A DNA stretch of 64,000 bases, from the NCBI GenBank assembly GCA_963795085.1, contig CAWCFX010000004.1, positions 320,001-384,000 on the forward strand, written 5' to 3'. Position numbers and translations under genes: made by a program. This document shows positions 8,009-44,598 of the stretch, piece after piece. The DNA comes from an uncultured Gemmatimonadales bacterium (lineage in GTDB: Bacteria > Gemmatimonadota > Gemmatimonadetes > Gemmatimonadales > GWC2-71-9). Position 1 is the stretch's first letter. Every line of letters starts with the position of its first letter. The notes beneath the pieces are model-generated. The model had not been told where the DNA came from and ran no database searches. It was given only the letters and a program-made list of their open reading frames with translations.

Positions 8009-8246
8009 CGCAAGACCTCTTCGGAAGGGGAGCGCCAGGCTCCGGAATTGCCTAGCCATCGTCGGCTAGCAGAAAAAAAGCCGGCCGGAGGGGAACTCCG
8101 GGCGGCCACTTACTGCCTAAGCGGAATACATCGGGAAAACACCGAGCCATACGGCGGACATGGTTGAAAACTCTGATTTGCCAGGAGTTTTGTCAATACT
8201 GGGGCCGGTTTAGATTAATGGCTTCCGCCCATAACCCGAGGGATCC

Positions 8247-10241
8247 ATGCTCTCTCTTCTCATGGCGCTGGCAGCTCTGCAGCAGCCCGCAACGCCGCCC
8301 TCCCCGGCCCGGCCGGTTCTCCAGGCTTCCCTCATCGCGCGGGTGGCCGTTCAGCCGGCGGAGGCGGCCGTCCAGGCCAACGACACGATCCGCCTGACCG
8401 CGATCGCCTACGATTCCGCGGGCCGCGCCCTGCCCGACACCCGGGTGATCTGGAACATCTCGGGCGGGATGTTCGAAGGCCGGGTCGACTCCACCGGTCT
8501 CGTCACCGGCGGATCCCCCGGAACATTGACGATTTCCGCCATGGTGCGGCCCCTCGGGGGCGGCCGCGGCGGCGTGGCCACGGCCCGGGTCACGGTGCTC
8601 CCCTCGCCGGCCGCCCGGATCGAGGTGTCCCCGTCCGTGCGCCAGATGATGGTCGGGCAGGTGCTGGCGCTGACCGCCGACCCCTACGCGGCGAATCACG
8701 ATCGCCGATACGACCCGGTCTCCTGGAGTGCGGACCGCCCCGCCGTCCTGGCGGTGGACAGCACCGGGCTCCTGACCGCGAAGGCACCGGGCCGCGCCAT
8801 TATTACGGCCCGGGCCGGCCAGGCCAGCTATTCCGCGACCGTGACCGTGGTCCCCAACCTGGTGACCGCTGTCGAACTCTCTCCCTCGAGCGCGGCGGTG
8901 CGGGCCGGCGACGTCGTCCGGTTCGAGTTTCTCGCCCGCACCAGCGCGGGACGCGCGGTGGCCGACCTGCGGCCCCAATGGTTCATCGCTCCCGGGAGCG
9001 GGCTGGTGGATCACGACGGTGGGTTCGTGGCCGACGTGCCGGGCACCTACCGGGTGATGGCCAGTTTCGCCGGCCGAACGGCGGAAGCCGTCGTCACCGT
9101 GCGCCCGCGGGACGCGGCCCGCCCCGCCACCGTGGTGGGCCGGCTGCCGCTCAAGGTGCAGGCGGCGGAGTTCTGGCTCCATCCCGATGGCCGACACGGG
9201 TATCTCACCACCCTGTCCGACCGGATCTACGCCCTGGACGTCAGCGATCCGGCCGCGCCCGTGATCACCGACTCGGTGATGGTGGACGCCCGGGTCATCA
9301 ATGACCTGATGACGACCGAGGACGGCAAGTTCGGCGTGGTCACCCGGGAGGGCGCGTCCACCCGGAAGAACGGGATCGTCGTGCTCTCCTTCGAGGACCC
9401 GGCTCACCCGAGGGCCATCGCCGAGTTTACCGAGACCGTCTCCGGAGGCGTGCACAGCACGTTCATCTACCGCGGCTACGTGTACCTGACCGACGACGCC
9501 ACCGGCTCGATGCGGGTGATCGACCTTCGCGATCCGTACCAGCCCCGGCAGGTGGCCCGTTGGGAGACGCCCCGCACCGAAGCGGGCCGGATGCTGCACG
9601 ACATCGACGTGCAGGACGGGCTGGCCTATCTGTCCTACTGGAACGACGGCCTGGTGATCCTCGACGTCGGCAACGGCATCAAGGGCGGGAGCCCGGAGAA
9701 CCCCCAGCTCGTTTCCCAGTACAAGTACGATCTCAATGCCCTCTACCGCGAAGTCGAAGCCATCGGCGGTCCCGGCTTCATCCGTGGTACCCATACCGCC
9801 TGGCGGGCCGGCCGCTACGTGTTCGTCGGTGACGAAGTCTTCAGTGCCCGCCCGGTGGCCGGGGGGGTGATCGGGCTGGGGCGCGCCTATGGGCGGCTGC
9901 ACGTGGTGGACGTCTCCGATATCCTGAATCCCCGGGGGGTCGCCTACTACGAGCCCCGGGACGGCGGGACCCACAACGTCTGGGTGGCGGGAGACACCCT
10001 GTATCTGGGCGATTACCAGGGGGGCCTCCGGGTGCTGGATATCTCGGGTGAGCTCCGCGGCGACCTGCTCCGGCAGGGCCGGGAAATCGCCCACGTCCAT
10101 ACCGGCGATCCCAAGGGGGTTACCCCCAACTCCGCCAACGCCTGGGGCGCGATCTACCGGAACGGGTATGTCTACGTGCCTGACATGAATTCGGGGCTGT
10201 GGATCGTCCGGATCGAGTCCCAGTCCGCGCTGACCCCGTAG
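8247..10241 (+). CDS. Secreted protein with Ig-like (Big_2) domains and LVIVD-repeat beta-propeller
   Basis: Signal peptide; VDSTGLVT/VDSTGLLT Ig-like repeats; repeated ALDVSDP, VIDLRDP, LVILDV, LHVVDVSD, LRVLDIS. Confidence 0.85.
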   Translation: MLSLLMALAALQQPATPPSPARPVLQASLIARVAVQPAEAAVQANDTIRLTAIAYDSAGRALPDTRVIWNISGGMFEGRVDSTGLVTGGSPGTLTISAMVRPLGGGRGGVATARVTVLPSPAARIEVSPSVRQMMVGQVLALTADPYAANHDRRYDPVSWSADRPAVLAVDSTGLLTAKAPGRAIITARAGQASYSATVTVVPNLVTAVELSPSSAAVRAGDVVRFEFLARTSAGRAVADLRPQWFIAPGSGLVDHDGGFVADVPGTYRVMASFAGRTAEAVVTVRPRDAARPATVVGRLPLKVQAAEFWLHPDGRHGYLTTLSDRIYALDVSDPAAPVITDSVMVDARVINDLMTTEDGKFGVVTREGASTRKNGIVVLSFEDPAHPRAIAEFTETVSGGVHSTFIYRGYVYLTDDATGSMRVIDLRDPYQPRQVARWETPRTEAGRMLHDIDVQDGLAYLSYWNDGLVILDVGNGIKGGSPENPQLVSQYKYDLNALYREVEAIGGPGFIRGTHTAWRAGRYVFVGDEVFSARPVAGGVIGLGRAYGRLHVVDVSDILNPRGVAYYEPRDGGTHNVWVAGDTLYLGDYQGGLRVLDISGELRGDLLRQGREIAHVHTGDPKGVTPNSANAWGAIYRNGYVYVPDMNSGLWIVRIESQSALTP

Positions 10242-10299: not shown

Positions 10300-10911
10300 A
10301 TGGCTGAGCCATCTACGCTGGTTGTCCGGACCTTCCTCGATCGGGCGGAAGCACTCGCGCACTTTTTCCACCGGGCCGGGGAGGCGCCCCGCCTGATCGC
10401 GTTCGACGACGCGCTGGGCTGCCCCATGGAAACCGCCCTGGCCGCTCTCGAGTGGACCAACGCGGTCGGGGCGCTCCACGATGACGACCTGCTACACGCC
10501 GCCCGGCTCACCAGCGAGACCGCCGCGGCGGTCATCGAGCGGAAGGCCGATGGGGGGCGGCGATACCTCTACCTGGGTCCCCGGCTGGACGCGCCCCCGA
10601 TGGACGTATTCGAGGGGGCCGTCATCTTCGACGAGCCGGGCGTCAAGGTGGTGGAGTTCTCCCAGCGGGCCCACGGCCTGGCCCATTTTCTCCGGGCCAC
10701 CTCGGGCGTCGGCGCGCTCCTGGCGCTGCTGGGCCGCCGCCCGCCCGAGATTCGCCACATGCGCCGGTGGCTGGGTCCCATCGTGCAGGAACTTGATGCA
10801 CCCCGCCTGCTGGTCGCGGGCTGGTTCGCCGCCAGTTCGGCCGGGTGCCTGTTTTCATCGAAGGAGGATGAACCATCATATCGCTACATCGAAGTCGGTC
10901 TGGAATCCTAG
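10300..10911 (+). CDS. Hypothetical protein with internal duplication
   Basis: Good GC-rich codon usage; two similar halves (see findings). Confidence 0.75.
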   Translation: MAEPSTLVVRTFLDRAEALAHFFHRAGEAPRLIAFDDALGCPMETALAALEWTNAVGALHDDDLLHAARLTSETAAAVIERKADGGRRYLYLGPRLDAPPMDVFEGAVIFDEPGVKVVEFSQRAHGLAHFLRATSGVGALLALLGRRPPEIRHMRRWLGPIVQELDAPRLLVAGWFAASSAGCLFSSKEDEPSYRYIEVGLES

Positions 10912-11468
10912 CCGTTCTCGCCCTGTTCGCCGTTCACCCTCTCGCGGCACAGAGCGGATTCATCAAGCCGGTAATCCTCGATTCTGCAGGCGCCGCAATG
11001 CTGGACAGCTACGCCTCCATCCGCGATACCATCCGGGTCGTCAGCGGCAAGGCCGCCATACTGCAACGTGATGCCCGCTCGGCGTCTGACCCGGTGCTCT
11101 TTTCCCGCGCCCGGAGTCTCACCGGCGCATGCGACGCCTCGCTGCGCCACCTCGACCGGACCCGGCACCTGATTCTCTCGTCCGACCGCGCCGAACGGGC
11201 CCCGGCACCCCGGCGCACGGCGCTGGATCGCTCAGCCATCGCGCTGCGAGCCGAACTGATGAACTGCACGGGGTTCTACCGGGAGATAACCAGGGACCGG
11301 GTGCGCGATATGCGCGGGAAAGGCGTGACCCAGGCGCTCAAGACCCAGGGCGCCATCCGCGACTTCGAAGGTGCCGCGGAAGCCTACCTGCTGAGCGTGG
11401 GCATCAAGGTCCGGCCCCATGGATCCGGCACGGATGTGTACGCTGGGAGTGCCCGCCGGGCGGATTAG
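10875..11468 (+). CDS. Secreted hypothetical protein; probable near-cognate start (ATC 10875 or ATA 10878)
   Basis: The reading frame of ORF 10998..11468 extends upstream to a stop at 10869 and encodes IISLHRSRSGILAVLALFAVHPLAAQ (signal peptide). AAGGAGG lies at 10861-10867. Confidence 0.6.
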   Translation: MISLHRSRSGILAVLALFAVHPLAAQSGFIKPVILDSAGAAMLDSYASIRDTIRVVSGKAAILQRDARSASDPVLFSRARSLTGACDASLRHLDRTRHLILSSDRAERAPAPRRTALDRSAIALRAELMNCTGFYREITRDRVRDMRGKGVTQALKTQGAIRDFEGAAEAYLLSVGIKVRPHGSGTDVYAGSARRAD

Positions 11469-11486
11469 AATGGCTGGCTTCCGGGT

Positions 11487-11530
11487 AAAAAAAAGAACGG
11501 CCACCTGGCCCTCAGACCAGGTGGCCGTTC
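11487..11530 (-). terminator. Intrinsic terminator
   Basis: Perfect 14-bp stem (gaacggccacctgg / ccaggtggccgttc) followed by U8 on the minus strand. Confidence 0.9.
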
Positions 11531-11907
11531 CCACAAAGACTTACCTGAGGTCGGGGCGATGCCGCCGTTCTTCTCTCAACTGCCGCCAGACCGCTTTCGC
11601 TGTCCGGGAGGGCAGGGTGAGGCCTCAGCTTTGATCCCCAGGCCGGATGGCCATCCCACCTGGTTCATCCCTGTGAGCGCTGCGAATCCAACCGGGTCGC
11701 ACCGGTCTTTCGCAGGGCACTCCGAGGCGCCGGATCGGAGTGGATGAAGCCCGCGACGGACTCCATCTGTCGGAGCCGGAGTGATCACCGGGATCTGCGG
11801 CCGCCTGAGCCCTTGGTTGCGTCGGCGACCTCCCCCGATATTCCGCTCAAACTCGCTAAACGCTCGTCCTGGCAAACGCGGGGTTCAACAGCGATCTCGT
11901 TCAGCGG
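11487..11907 (-). ncRNA. Candidate large structured ncRNA of unknown class
   Basis: Own promoter-like element and terminator, no convincing ORF, many nested helices and a 5'/3' closing helix. Confidence 0.6.
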
Positions 11908-11913
11908 TGATAC

Positions 11914-11941
11914 AAGATAGGATATCGAAATAGCCCCGCAA
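11914..11941 (-). promoter_or_regulatory. sigma70-like promoter for the candidate ncRNA
   Basis: Minus strand TTGCGG-16 bp-TATCTT in an AT-enriched patch. Confidence 0.5.
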
Positions 11942-12054
11942 GCGCCTGTCTTTATTCGGTTTACGGCACCTCTACGTGGAACAAATGTGGATTGCTAACT
12001 GCGCGGGCAACGCCACGATAGCTGATCTCTCCACACCCGTGTGGAGAATGTGAA

Positions 12055-13026
12055 TCAGAGTCCCCACGTACTTTTCCCCCGGAAGATCCGGCGCCGGTCC
12101 AGTTGCCAGATGGTTCGGGAGCTGATCGCTTCGCCTTCGGAGAAGTTCTCCGGGTCGGCCAGTGCCCGGACCATGCTGTCGGCCTTGGCGCTGGCATCGT
12201 CCGCGTGGTGCAACAACTCGGCTTCCAGCGTCATGGGGAGCACCGGCGCGCCAAACTCGAGCTTGCCATGGTGGGCAAGAATCAGGTGGTGCAGCAGGTC
12301 CAGTTCGCCGCTGGTGAGGCCGTGGTCGCGGCCGGCGGCTCGCTCCTGCAGCATGAGGCTCCCCAGGACCACGTGGCCGTAGAGATGACCCCGCGGCGTC
12401 ATCTCGAACCCGCGCTGGTATCCGTAGGCCTCCAGCTTGCCGATATCATGCAGCAACACTCCCGCGACCAGCAGGTCGGGATCGGCCGGCGTGGTTCGGC
12501 TCAGGGTGCGGGCGATCAGACCGACCTCCCAGGTGTGCTGGAGTAATCCACCGAGCGCCGCGTGGTGCCCGGCAACGCTGGCGGGACACCGGCCAAAGGC
12601 GCTGCGGAAGAGTTGATCGTCGTAGAACAACGCCAGAAGGTCCCGGATCCCGGGCGCGGCAACCTGGGCGCGCCATCCGTCCAGGGCCTGCCAGTACAGG
12701 GCCGTATCGCCGACGGTCGGCAGCATGTCCGCCCAGTTCACGGAGGTCTCCGGGATGGGCCGAATGCGATGGACCCGCAGCTGCCGACGCTCGCGATAGA
12801 GCGTGATGTCGCCGCAGACTTCGACCACCTGGCCGCGGCGGATCCCGGCGAGGAGGGGCAGGGTTTCGGTCCAGAAGGGCGCACTCTGGATCCGGCCTGA
12901 CCGGTTGCCGAGGGTGAGGACGACAAAGGGCTGGTTGCCGGCGCCTCGCTGGGCGATGTCGCAGACCAGCAGGGTTCCTTCCAACTGGTCTCCGGCGGCC
13001 AGTCCGGGAAGCGGGATCATGACCAT
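12055..13026 (-). CDS. yhaM: YhaM/Cbf1-like 3'-5' exoribonuclease (OB fold + HD domain)
   Basis: N-terminal OB fold; PAS..HHA..GGLLQH, LLHDIGKL, GHV, ILAHHGKLEFGAPVLP..EAELLHHAD. Confidence 0.85.
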   Translation of the reverse strand: MVMIPLPGLAAGDQLEGTLLVCDIAQRGAGNQPFVVLTLGNRSGRIQSAPFWTETLPLLAGIRRGQVVEVCGDITLYRERRQLRVHRIRPIPETSVNWADMLPTVGDTALYWQALDGWRAQVAAPGIRDLLALFYDDQLFRSAFGRCPASVAGHHAALGGLLQHTWEVGLIARTLSRTTPADPDLLVAGVLLHDIGKLEAYGYQRGFEMTPRGHLYGHVVLGSLMLQERAAGRDHGLTSGELDLLHHLILAHHGKLEFGAPVLPMTLEAELLHHADDASAKADSMVRALADPENFSEGEAISSRTIWQLDRRRIFRGKSTWGL

Positions 13027-13115
13027 GCCCCAAGGTAGCGGTGATCGCCGGCGCCACCGTTACCATTTGCACCCGGCACAGGTACAAAAAAGGACGCGGC
13101 ATTATCTTGGGTTTC

Positions 13116-13514
13116 ATGCCCCCTCTGCACTGCGTGGTCGTCGCTGGTTCAGCGGAACGCCGCCGCCTCATGGAAGACGCGTGGCGCGGGGCAGGGCAGG
13201 TGATCGTCCCCGCCAGGGATGCCGAGGAGGCGGCCAATGCCCTGACTGCGCCGGGACTGGATGTCCTCGCCGTGGACCTGGCTCTGCCCCTCCTCGACCG
13301 GGCGGCCCTGCAACGCGCCATCAGTCCGGCTCTCACCCATCCGCCCGAATCACTCGAGGCCGCCGAGCGGCGGCACATCGCGCTGACCCTGGCCTACACC
13401 GGGGGAAACCGGCGGCAGGCCGCCCGGCTCCTGGGCATCGCCCGTTCAACGATGCTCGCCAAGCTTCGGAAGTATGGGCTGGAATCCATCGGCGGAACCA
13501 CCGGGAGCGACTGA
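13116..13514 (+). CDS. Degenerate receiver-like domain fused to a Fis-type HTH (no AAA+ domain)
   Basis: C-terminal SLEAAERRHIALTLAYTGGNRRQAARLLGIARSTMLAKLRKYGL; N-terminal DVLAVDLALP. ATG at 13116 chosen. Confidence 0.8.
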   Translation: MPPLHCVVVAGSAERRRLMEDAWRGAGQVIVPARDAEEAANALTAPGLDVLAVDLALPLLDRAALQRAISPALTHPPESLEAAERRHIALTLAYTGGNRRQAARLLGIARSTMLAKLRKYGLESIGGTTGSD

Positions 13515-13517
13515 GCC

Positions 13518-14093
13518 ATGCGGATGCAACTGGTTCTCCTCGGTACGCTTCTGGGTATGCCGGCCTGGTCGGGAGCTCAGCAGGCGGTGCGGGATGGTAG
13601 CGTGGCGGAAGGGACGCTCAGTTTCGATGGCCGGGCCACGGTCGGTAATTTCACGGGGACGACGTCCACCGTCACCGGCCGGTTGACCGGCGGCAGCGAT
13701 CTCGCCCAGGCACGGGGCTGGATCGAGGCGCCGGTGGAGTCGCTCAAGACCGGCAACGGCCGGCGCGACCGCGACCTTAACAAGTCCATGGAGTCCGACC
13801 AGTTCCCCGTCCTCCGGTTCGATCTCGCGGGCGTCGTGCCGGGGGTCACCCGGGGCGATTCGACCGCAGTCACCCTGACCGGCTCGTTTACGATTCACGG
13901 GGTGGTGCGTGAGGTCGCAGTGCCGGCCACCGTGATCCGGCTGCCGGGGCACCTCCGGCTCCGCACCAGTTTTCCGATGAACCTGGTCGATTACCAGATC
14001 GGCGGGCTGAGCAAGATGCTGGGCTTGCTCAAGATGTATCCGGACATCACGGTGCACGTGGATCTGCTGTTCTCGCAACCGACCGGCTCTTGA
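13518..14093 (+). CDS. YceI-family lipid/polyisoprenoid-binding protein
   Basis: Signal peptide; SLKTGNGRRDRDL...MESDQFP, GSFTIHGV motifs. Confidence 0.9.
   Translation: MRMQLVLLGTLLGMPAWSGAQQAVRDGSVAEGTLSFDGRATVGNFTGTTSTVTGRLTGGSDLAQARGWIEAPVESLKTGNGRRDRDLNKSMESDQFPVLRFDLAGVVPGVTRGDSTAVTLTGSFTIHGVVREVAVPATVIRLPGHLRLRTSFPMNLVDYQIGGLSKMLGLLKMYPDITVHVDLLFSQPTGS

Positions 14094-44526: not shown

Positions 44527-44598
<72 letters not shown>

Follow-up and report, generated by a model that had tools for sequence, protein, structure and literature searches.

The RNA gene and its locus

We analysed a 64,000-nt stretch of DNA from an uncultured Gemmatimonadales bacterium (GenBank assembly GCA_963795085.1, contig CAWCFX010000004.1, positions 320,001 to 384,000; hereafter the window, whose own numbering is used below), in which a preliminary description made from the letters alone had pointed to a large, highly structured noncoding RNA (ncRNA) on the minus strand. 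The RNA locus is part of a 586-nt gap between a plus-strand open reading frame (ORF) of 156 amino acids and a minus-strand gene for an OB-fold/HD protein resembling YhaM (the yhaM-like gene). On the far side of the 156-residue ORF lies orf203, which encodes a protein of 203 amino acids and proved to be the most constant companion of the RNA. Coordinates of all features are collected in Table 1. The gene is framed by two landmarks that had been described correctly, a promoter with the hexamers TTGCGG and TATCTT separated by 16 nt, and an intrinsic terminator with a perfect 14-bp stem followed by eight U residues, and the distance between them agrees with the proposed length of about 420 nt. The start site probably lies near position 11908. 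When G-U pairs were counted, as in a terminator scan, the terminator stem comprised 18 pairs; it also covaries in homologues, where changes on both sides were seen in 5 of the 7 pairs of this helix (helix 20 of the structure described below). The separate hairpin noted after the yhaM-like gene is present as well. The RNA gene is single-copy in its source genome, and its minimum free energy (MFE) of folding was -204.1 kcal/mol compared with -179.3 +/- 6.3 kcal/mol for 100 dinucleotide shuffles (z = -3.94).

A consensus promoter scanner called 0 promoters at the RNA gene, and the case for the promoter is therefore its conservation. We found GGCACTTGC in 99 of 105 unique homologues, with the 16-nt spacer kept in 97 of these 99. 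Among the 99 promoter-bearing homologues the -35 element reads TTGCGN and the -10 element TAnnTT nearly throughout, with TATATT in 45 and TATCTT in 28. Directly upstream of the -35 element is a further conserved block, in which most positions show at least 80% conservation in the same 99 homologues; in the 3.9-Mb genome of the window it has a single occurrence when up to two mismatches are allowed, while a control pattern had 0. Its GGCAC stands beside the TTGC of the -35 element, an arrangement that brought a sigma-54 promoter into consideration. The blocks of sigma-54 promoters are usually set apart by a spacer, and this candidate was dropped because the two blocks abut here without one.

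The whole RNA cassette, from promoter to terminator, is inverted in the window relative to three genomes of the same genus, G001, G003 and G004 (window positions 11470-12054 compared with loci L002, L003 and L005; G and L denote genomes and loci, and f1-f12 families within our Gemmatimonadota sample). The gene order in these three is orf203, the small ORF and the RNA on one strand, followed by the convergent yhaM-like gene. An inverted repeat brackets the inverted cassette (I3, 11478-11491 and 12072-12085, 14 nt, 86%); it is probably due to chance, because one of its arms falls within the reading frame of the HD protein, and the C-terminal end of that frame can still be aligned with relatives. 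On these sequence features the segment is a free-standing, independently transcribed ncRNA gene.

Rfam 15, with 4227 models at gathering thresholds, gave no match in positions 11300-12200, and its sole match in the whole window was a tRNA (44527-44598). Its models include OLE, ROOL, GOLLD, raiA, HEARO, 6S, RNase P, tmRNA, signal recognition particle (SRP) RNA and the riboswitch classes. When the threshold was relaxed to E <=10, the best score in 11300-12200 was a chance-level 24.1 bits on the terminator hairpin, against a threshold of 81.9, and searches of nine diverged homologous loci brought up no recurring family. The suggestion that the RNA belongs to no recognised class thus held at gathering score. 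It had also been distinguished earlier from RNase P RNA, tmRNA and SRP RNA, and all three were found elsewhere in the genome with scores above cut-off (RNase P RNA at C4:201071-201465, 278.7 bits; tmRNA at C1:1227885-1228249, 137.4 bits; SRP RNA at C3:303237-303336, 43.2 bits). 6S RNA (RF00013) was detected neither in this genome nor in any of 41 relatives; this says little because the search is insensitive and recovered 6S RNA from no more than 5 of 14 control genomes. The idea that the RNA replaces 6S RNA was dropped, since families f1, f2 and f3 are alike in this respect and offer no contrast to use.

Other kinds of RNA were considered as well. A riboswitch or cis-acting 5' leader is ruled out by the strong intrinsic terminator and by the next gene downstream, which is convergent with the RNA here and in most of the homologous loci that were examined for gene arrangement. 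RNAs of mobile elements or guide RNAs (omega RNA of IscB or TnpB, retron msr-msd, group II intron) were rejected because the gene is single-copy and its neighbours do not fit: the genes around it encode orf203, a small ORF without family, the YhaM-like HD protein, a Fis-type helix-turn-helix (HTH) protein and YceI, and PADLOC reported at the locus only a generic HD similarity to Cas3. The RNA family is not described in the full-text literature that we searched on structured or noncoding RNAs of Gemmatimonad*, and Gemmatimon* is absent from the main text of two surveys of bacterial ncRNAs (PMC11109978; 10.64898/2026.10.21.760802). Judged by these searches, the family is uncatalogued and represents a new class of large structured RNA.

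Fold, covariation and natural variants

Two alignments were used to derive the fold. RNAalifold was run on 26 full-length sequences, from which L014 (from an unpublished genome) was left out, as were L023, L027 and L029, whose 3' halves diverge; it predicted 110 pairs, 68 of them with compensatory changes. A larger alignment was obtained by stepwise filtering of 147 loci, of which 130 were nhmmer hits, 123 had the full core, 119 full flanks, 105 were unique, 99 had a canonical promoter and 95 had this promoter at the standard distance. Curation by mutual information on these 95 sequences yielded 17 helices and two pseudoknots. When applied to the 26-sequence alignment, the curated structure contains 117 pairs in 20 helices, and 94.2% of the cells are paired, compared with 37.6-43.4% in a control in which partners were slid by 1-3 columns. 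Changes on both sides occurred in 74 of the 117 pairs, against 20-33 in the slid controls, and 0 of 500 shuffles reached the observed values. The covariation check proposed in the preliminary description therefore came out in favor of a structured RNA, with abundant covariation in the alignments.

The constant part of the RNA is its core, which is made of hairpins P7, P8 and P9/P10 and two pseudoknots and is nearly invariant. In the core alignment (A2), mean column identity is 81% and the structure is 98.7% paired, a value reached by 0 of 500 shuffles. Three of the helices proposed earlier, CUCCGA/UCGGAG (P8), CUGCGAA/UUCGCAG (P9) and ACCGG/CCGGU (P10), belong to this core and are all supported by covariation. 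The two pseudoknots, PK1 and PK2, were absent from the earlier list of helices. PK1 is a kissing interaction of the P7 loop GUCGCG with the P10 loop CGCGAC and shows 100% standard pairs in the 95 sequences; its end pair is a G-C in 88 of them and an A-U in the other 7, and the A-U change arises independently in the f1 paralogues L190 and L194. PK2 connects the P8 loop with a strand just 3' of P9. The pair at its center is a C-G in 54 of the 95 sequences and a U-A in the other 41 (100% standard); in alignment A1, C-G is seen 20 times and U-A 6 times.

The domains on either side of the core are less uniform. The 5' domain is the variable part of the family, and P2, P4, P5 and P6 covary in it. 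Compensatory changes were found in each of P11, P13, P14, P15 and P17 of the 3' domain; P16 and P16b are conserved, with few or no such changes. Several pairings proposed for this region survived in part. For CCAGG/CCUGG the outer CC/GG (P12a) is supported, and for GGAUG/CAUCC the first three pairs (P13); within CUGCC/GGCAG (P16) the GCC/GGC pairs are conserved, as is the beginning of CCGGAC/GUCUGG (P16b), but compensatory changes are few in both. The pairing of CUGAGG with CCUCAG, which had been offered as an alternative helix or pseudoknot, is real and covaries, with compensatory changes at four positions, and it displaces an alternative with UGGGG that varies by wobble alone; it is an ordinary nested helix (P14) and no pseudoknot. 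Two long-range helices turned out to be wrong. The closing helix UCGGGG..GUCGCCG/CGGCGGC..CCCCGA has only 18-41% standard pairs in several columns of the 95-sequence alignment, and its segments pair locally in P4, P5 and P17. Similarly, UUCAUCC/GGAUGAA shows 22-67% standard pairs in 5 of 7 columns of the same alignment, and UUCAUC is the 3' strand of P7. The loss of these two helices leaves the interpretation as a structured RNA unaffected. The loop of P8 varies between GGCGC, AGUGC and GGCGCA and that of P13 between GGCC and GGGC. Multimer formation by self-complementary loops was considered and rejected, since self-complementarity is not conserved; because the P8 and P13 loops are not self-complementary across the family, self-kissing through them is not indicated.

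Table 1. Positions in the window of the RNA gene, its structural parts and the neighboring features
Feature	Positions	Strand	Remarks
ncRNA transcript	11487..11908	-	about 420 nt; ends deduced from promoter and terminator; homologues 373-448 nt between the same landmarks
promoter	11914..11941	-	-35 TTGCGG 11941-11936; 16-nt spacer; -10 TATCTT 11919-11914
conserved upstream promoter element	11942..11964	-	GTAAACCGAATAAAGACAGGCGC; family consensus GTAAcCCGAAgAAA-N4-GGCAC
intrinsic terminator	11487..11532	-	stem 11532-11493, then U8 run 11494-11487
5' domain, P1-P6	11769..11908	-	variable; some helices covary (see text)
core, P7, P8, P9/P10 and two pseudoknots	11676..11767	-	nearly invariant
PK1 5' strand GUCGCG	11752..11757	-	P7 loop; kisses P10 loop
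PK1 3' strand GCGAC	11696..11700	-	P10 loop; pairs with P7 loop
PK2 5' strand GGCGC	11727..11731	-	P8 loop; pairs with 11676-11680; detected by mutual information
PK2 3' strand GCGCU	11676..11680	-	just 3' of P9; pairs with P8 loop
3' domain, P11-P17	11532..11675	-	closed by long-range helix P11; P12a; P13 hairpin with conserved YGGCCA loop; P15/P16 stem-loop; purine-rich GAGAAGAAC junction; hairpin P17
P14	11623-11628 with 11545-11550	-	CUGAGG with CCUCAG; nested helix
99-codon ORF	11576-11875	-	no Pfam match
orf203	10300..10911	+	203 aa; convergent with the RNA gene here; no known family
156-aa ORF	10998-11468	+	between orf203 and RNA; no family
hairpin after yhaM-like gene	~12027-12048		separate from the RNA terminator
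yhaM-like gene	12055-13026	-	OB-fold/HD protein
HTH protein gene	13041-13514	+	157 aa
YceI-like protein gene	13518-14093	+	after the HTH gene
Big_2/LVIVD gene	8247-10241	+	664 aa; upstream of orf203
635-aa ORF	8193-10100	-	opposite the Big_2/LVIVD gene

Natural variants also delimit the core. In the paralogues that we inspected (L190-L196, from genomes G158, G082, G166 and G075), the core and the 3' domain are kept, the 5' domain is shortened or replaced, and the promoters are different; L190 and L194 also lack P4/P5. Genome G091 carries a mini-version (L197, on C40) of about 190 nt beside orf203, consisting of the promoter, the core region P7-P13 and the terminator, and also a full-length copy (L195, on C16) with the same promoter at an unrelated locus. 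P3-P6 are missing in some orthologues, and the 5' domain is shortened or absent in paralogues. Because the paralogues, the mini-version and the orthologues without P3-P6 all keep the core with its two pseudoknots, this is the constant part of the RNA.

The paralogues were also inspected for their surroundings. L191 lies directly after an rtcB RNA-ligase gene, and L194 adjoins a Na+/H+ exchanger gene. L193 and L196 each have a phosphoribosyltransferase gene as neighbor, and genes for Usp, BON-domain and hibernation-factor proteins are close by. These contexts may share a theme of stress or dormancy.

Distribution of the RNA and its coupling to orf203

A covariance model of the 139-position core (P7-P10, PK1 and PK2), designated R1, was used to trace the family. 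It scores the window copy at 134.8 bits (E 1.5e-26, positions 1-139), with every helix and both pseudoknots present. Of 41 related genomes, 30 gave blastn matches to the RNA, with identities of 68-80%. R1 matched 73 of 151 Gemmatimonadota genomes, including 70 of 71 in family f1 and 2 of 2 in f3, with none in f2 (0/31) or in f4-f12 (0/46), and it recovered two f3 genomes and one f1 genome that blastn had missed. Pattern matches in a species-genome collection were annotated as Gemmatimonadales or Gemmatimonadota; for the 17 among the matches listed that were annotated to other phyla, R1 scores did not exceed 11.7 bits, the chance level. Within the genomes searched, the RNA family as defined by these matches is confined to two families of the order Gemmatimonadales. 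Two unpublished genomes enter some of the counts. G018 is included in the tallies of blastn over the 41 relatives, orf203 conservation, the distribution of the yhaM-like gene and RF00013, and G083 in the RNA, orf203 and adjacency tallies over 151 genomes; dropping either shifts each count by one and leaves the conclusions unaltered, and neither contributes to A1, A2, A4, R1 or the 95-sequence alignment.

One family member, L205, was found in the IMG/VR viral collection, near the end of a contig of 3248 nt, and scores 100.6 bits with R1; it is the sole match in that collection. The DNA flanking it is lower in G+C, the PK1 strand GUCGCG is missing from its P7 loop, and the ORFs in 699 nt of this contig were uninformative.

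The distribution of orf203 follows that of the RNA exactly. An orf203 profile matched the same 73 of 151 genomes as R1, with both found in 73 genomes, neither in 78 and no discordant case. The f1 genome G102, which is 97% complete, lacks the RNA and lacks orf203 as well. In 72 of the 73 genomes orf203 has an RNA core downstream on its own contig, at a distance of 68-963 nt (median 360), and in the sole exception the contig ends 615 nt from the RNA. The two genes are co-directional in 68 of these 72 linked genomes and convergent in 4; f3 loci are convergent in all six examined. The linkage has thus come through several rearrangements and is independent of co-transcription. Conservation of the protein is also high, with within-genus identities of 92-95% for orf203 versus 55-61% for the yhaM-like neighbor. 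The latter is not co-distributed with the RNA, being present in 18/24 genomes of f1, 5/8 of f2 and 5/8 of f3. Its product aligns end-to-end to the model of the YhaM 3'-5' exoribonuclease, with a score below cut-off. This protein was rejected as an obligate partner, since 5 of 8 f2 genomes have the gene and no RNA, and in several f1 and f3 carriers of the RNA it was not found.

We found no match to orf203 in Pfam, NCBIfam, PADLOC or the sequences of the PDB. An exhaustive HMMER search retrieved only 123 representative clusters, all with at least 42% identity and many of them fragments; where named, these relatives are hypothetical proteins of Gemmatimonadales. A search for longer fused forms brought up eight proteins. 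Two of them carry LVIVD, the family of the gene upstream of orf203, and the other six have no Pfam annotation; we read them as probable gene-call run-ons. The protein contains an internal duplication, as a one-sequence search aligned residues 3-93 with residues 112-200 (29% identity, E 0.008). Its AlphaFold2 model has a pLDDT of 83.5 and a pTM of 0.81. Searches with this model gave nothing at E <=0.001 in the PDB by Foldseek and no usable match in the ESM Atlas. The best hit of a wide VIA search was a WGR domain (Z 5.3, 71 residues aligned, rmsd 3.1), which is within the range that the tool calls common, and a second VIA search reached Z 4.7. A sequence profile against the PDB brought up only a designed repeat protein (E 4e-4). 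The top Foldseek rows were CYTH/triphosphate tunnel metalloenzymes, but these matches are weak (E >=0.0078, TM-score ~0.21), as are those of VIA over the full length (Z 3.7-4.4). The CYTH family is marked by a tunnel fold of eight strands and an N-terminal ExExK motif; the first strand of orf203, LVVRTF, lacks it, and no Pfam CYTH match appeared even at E <=10.

Function of the RNA and related systems

The RNA and orf203 probably work together, because they are almost always adjacent. We consider it somewhat probable that this lineage-specific large structured RNA acts with the protein of the adjacent orf203 as a dedicated ribonucleoprotein; the genetic coupling of the two is observed, and a physical partnership is what we infer from it. 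If so, the doubly pseudoknotted core would be the functional center, as a binding surface or a catalytic site, and the 5' domain would be a dispensable accessory. In a more specific version, the RNA would be the subunit that catalyses the reaction or recognises the substrate in a ribonucleoprotein enzyme not described before, with the core as its active site and orf203 as a dedicated cofactor. This version follows the logic of RNase P RNA and RnpA in a lineage-specific form and appears unlikely.

Several observations weigh against a dedicated ribonucleoprotein. One or two further copies of the RNA are present in 18 of 73 genomes (55 of 73 are single-copy), orf203 remains a single match per carrier genome despite these extra RNA copies, and the seven extra copies that were examined lie in unrelated contexts. 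Genome G022, which is 99% complete, keeps the RNA, while orf203, whose place would be between the small ORF and the gene with the LVIVD repeats, has been cleanly deleted (L015/L202, on C50); this is the sole case of the RNA without orf203 that was seen, and its RNA lacks P3-P6. The viral-collection copy L205 has no orf203 in 546 nt upstream, and in G005 the RNA (69.9 bits) and orf203 are on different contigs. Co-occurrence itself may rest on a single ancestral gain of each gene, because it largely reflects one clade (f1 and f3), and related genomes do not count as independent observations. As for the protein, its calculated pI is 5.5, though it has 18 Arg, and family and fold searches revealed no recognisable RNA-binding domain. 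Finally, both the ends of the transcript and its abundance are deduced from sequence. The G022 deletion had also suggested P3-P6 as the binding site of orf203; this idea was rejected, as an RNA without P3-P6 adjoins an intact orf203 in G143 (L172), and P4/P5 are also missing from L190 and L194, the second copies in genomes of the same genus as G143.

The chief alternative, to which we assign a rather low probability, is that the RNA acts alone, either as a ribozyme or in an RNA-only assembly of the kind reported for ROOL, GOLLD and OLE, and that its position beside orf203 reflects inherited order or shared regulation. Strong core conservation together with pseudoknots is the usual pattern of catalytic or ligand-binding RNAs, and the core here combines very strong conservation, which extends to junction nucleotides, with two pseudoknots; the RNA kept in G022, the copies far from orf203 and the acidic protein without known RNA-binding fold are consistent with this alternative too. 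Homo-oligomeric RNA-only particles have been published for other large bacterial RNAs, as the cited account describes them (PMC12286853), and this precedent also speaks for it. An RNA acting alone would, however, hardly be expected to stay beside one gene in 72 of 73 genomes, through inversions of the RNA gene, while other neighbors are not retained likewise, and one f1 genome lost both genes. Nor is an assembly through self-kissing of the P8 and P13 loops indicated, as these lack family-wide self-complementarity.

It appears improbable that orf203 is instead a regulator of the RNA gene, for instance by binding the upstream element, and that the RNA is a trans-acting sponge or a 6S-like protein decoy. 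Upstream of the -35 box, an element of some 25 nt is unusually conserved and unique in the genome, a regulator gene beside its target is a common arrangement, and the weak best fold matches of orf203 include nucleic-acid binders (WGR, Z 5.3 and 5.2; AP2, Z 5.1). These fold matches, however, fall within the common range of the tool, orf203 has neither a helix-turn-helix nor another recognised DNA-binding family, and paralogous RNA copies stand under different promoters. The failure to detect RF00013 in the 41 relatives would leave room for a decoy, with the weakness of that search (5 of 14 controls) to be kept in mind, but the RNA is multi-branched and pseudoknotted and does not resemble the 6S rod with its central bubble.

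We regard it as very improbable that the RNA is a cis-acting 3' untranslated region (3'-UTR), or a processed 3' product, of the orf203 mRNA. Its location on the same strand downstream of orf203 in 68 of 73 genomes would agree with this, but the RNA carries a conserved promoter of its own, another ORF separates the two genes in this genus, unlinked RNA copies exist, and the RNA is on the opposite strand here, in the six f3 loci examined and in G026, G028 (f3) and G058. A coding or chance origin is effectively excluded: G+C-rich DNA does yield long chance ORFs and stable folds, and the minus strand has an open frame of 99 codons here, but this ORF has no family match and the coding check proposed for it found no 3-base periodicity (column entropy 0.712, 0.697 and 0.702 bits by codon position in the alignment of 95 homologues), and neither the compensatory changes (74/117 pairs versus 20-33) nor the fold energy (z -3.94) would be expected by chance.

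With regard to known systems, the ribonucleoprotein that we favor is closest in kind to OLE RNA with its Oap proteins and to other ornate orphan RNAs, with no homology to any of them. The gene oapA is encoded beside the OLE gene. OLE RNA works in a ribonucleoprotein with dedicated proteins, as set out in the sources cited (PMC7936274, PMC12265935, PMC9723947). As far as these describe it, OLE (Bacillota; RF01071) is like the present RNA in being large, intricate, strongly conserved and lineage-restricted, with its biochemical function open. The two differ in length (~600 versus ~420 nt) and phylum, no Rfam match connects them, and the candidate partner here, orf203, with its internal duplication and no family, is no Oap protein. 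ROOL and GOLLD share with this RNA its size class, complexity, many covarying helices and lack of a known function, according to the account cited (PMC12286853). They form RNA-only multimers. The present RNA has no match to their Rfam models, is a chromosomal gene, single-copy in 55 of 73 genomes and in stable order with a protein gene, and has only 1 match in the viral contig collection.

The logic of a structured RNA with its own promoter and one small protein is shared with tmRNA/SmpB, Y RNA/Ro60 (Rsr) and RNase P RNA/RnpA. Similarly to the present pair, many bacteria have ssrA next to smpB and Y RNA next to rsr. The present RNA has no match to any of the models for these RNAs, and orf203 gave no match to the SmpB, TROVE or RnpA families. 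6S RNA resembles it in being a stand-alone regulatory RNA gene of the abundant type with a strong promoter, and its role is formally unfilled here as RF00013 was undetected in these genomes by the low-sensitivity search; 6S RNA is a rod of ~185 nt with a central bubble, whereas this RNA is ~420 nt, branched and doubly pseudoknotted and has no model match.

Large intricate bacterial RNAs are rare, and where a function is known it is mostly that of a ribozyme or of a machine central to the cell; the few orphan classes OLE, ROOL, GOLLD and raiA are the focus of intense structural work. To these the present RNA adds a new and well-defined class, from a soil phylum that has been little studied, and the class comes with a helix-level fold, two pseudoknots, a minimal core, natural deletion variants and paralogues. 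The mini-version and full-length copy of G091 amount to a ready-made deletion series. What is new is the coupling of the RNA with a lineage-specific 203-residue protein of no recognisable family or fold, and with a single candidate partner of unknown fold the function of the RNA is directly testable.

The 156-residue ORF between orf203 and the RNA, which has no family, occurs in only 8 of 30 loci, and its homologue in G022 has a signal-peptide-like start. The 664-residue protein encoded upstream of orf203 contains Big_2 and LVIVD repeats, and the 635-residue ORF opposite this gene resembles a shadow frame typical of high-G+C DNA. On the other side of the locus, a YceI-like protein is encoded after the HTH gene. 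The HTH gene is divergent from the yhaM-like gene, and its 157-residue product has only a Fis-type helix-turn-helix, at the C-terminus; of 30 loci, 11 have a homologue of this gene in their 1.5-kb flanks.

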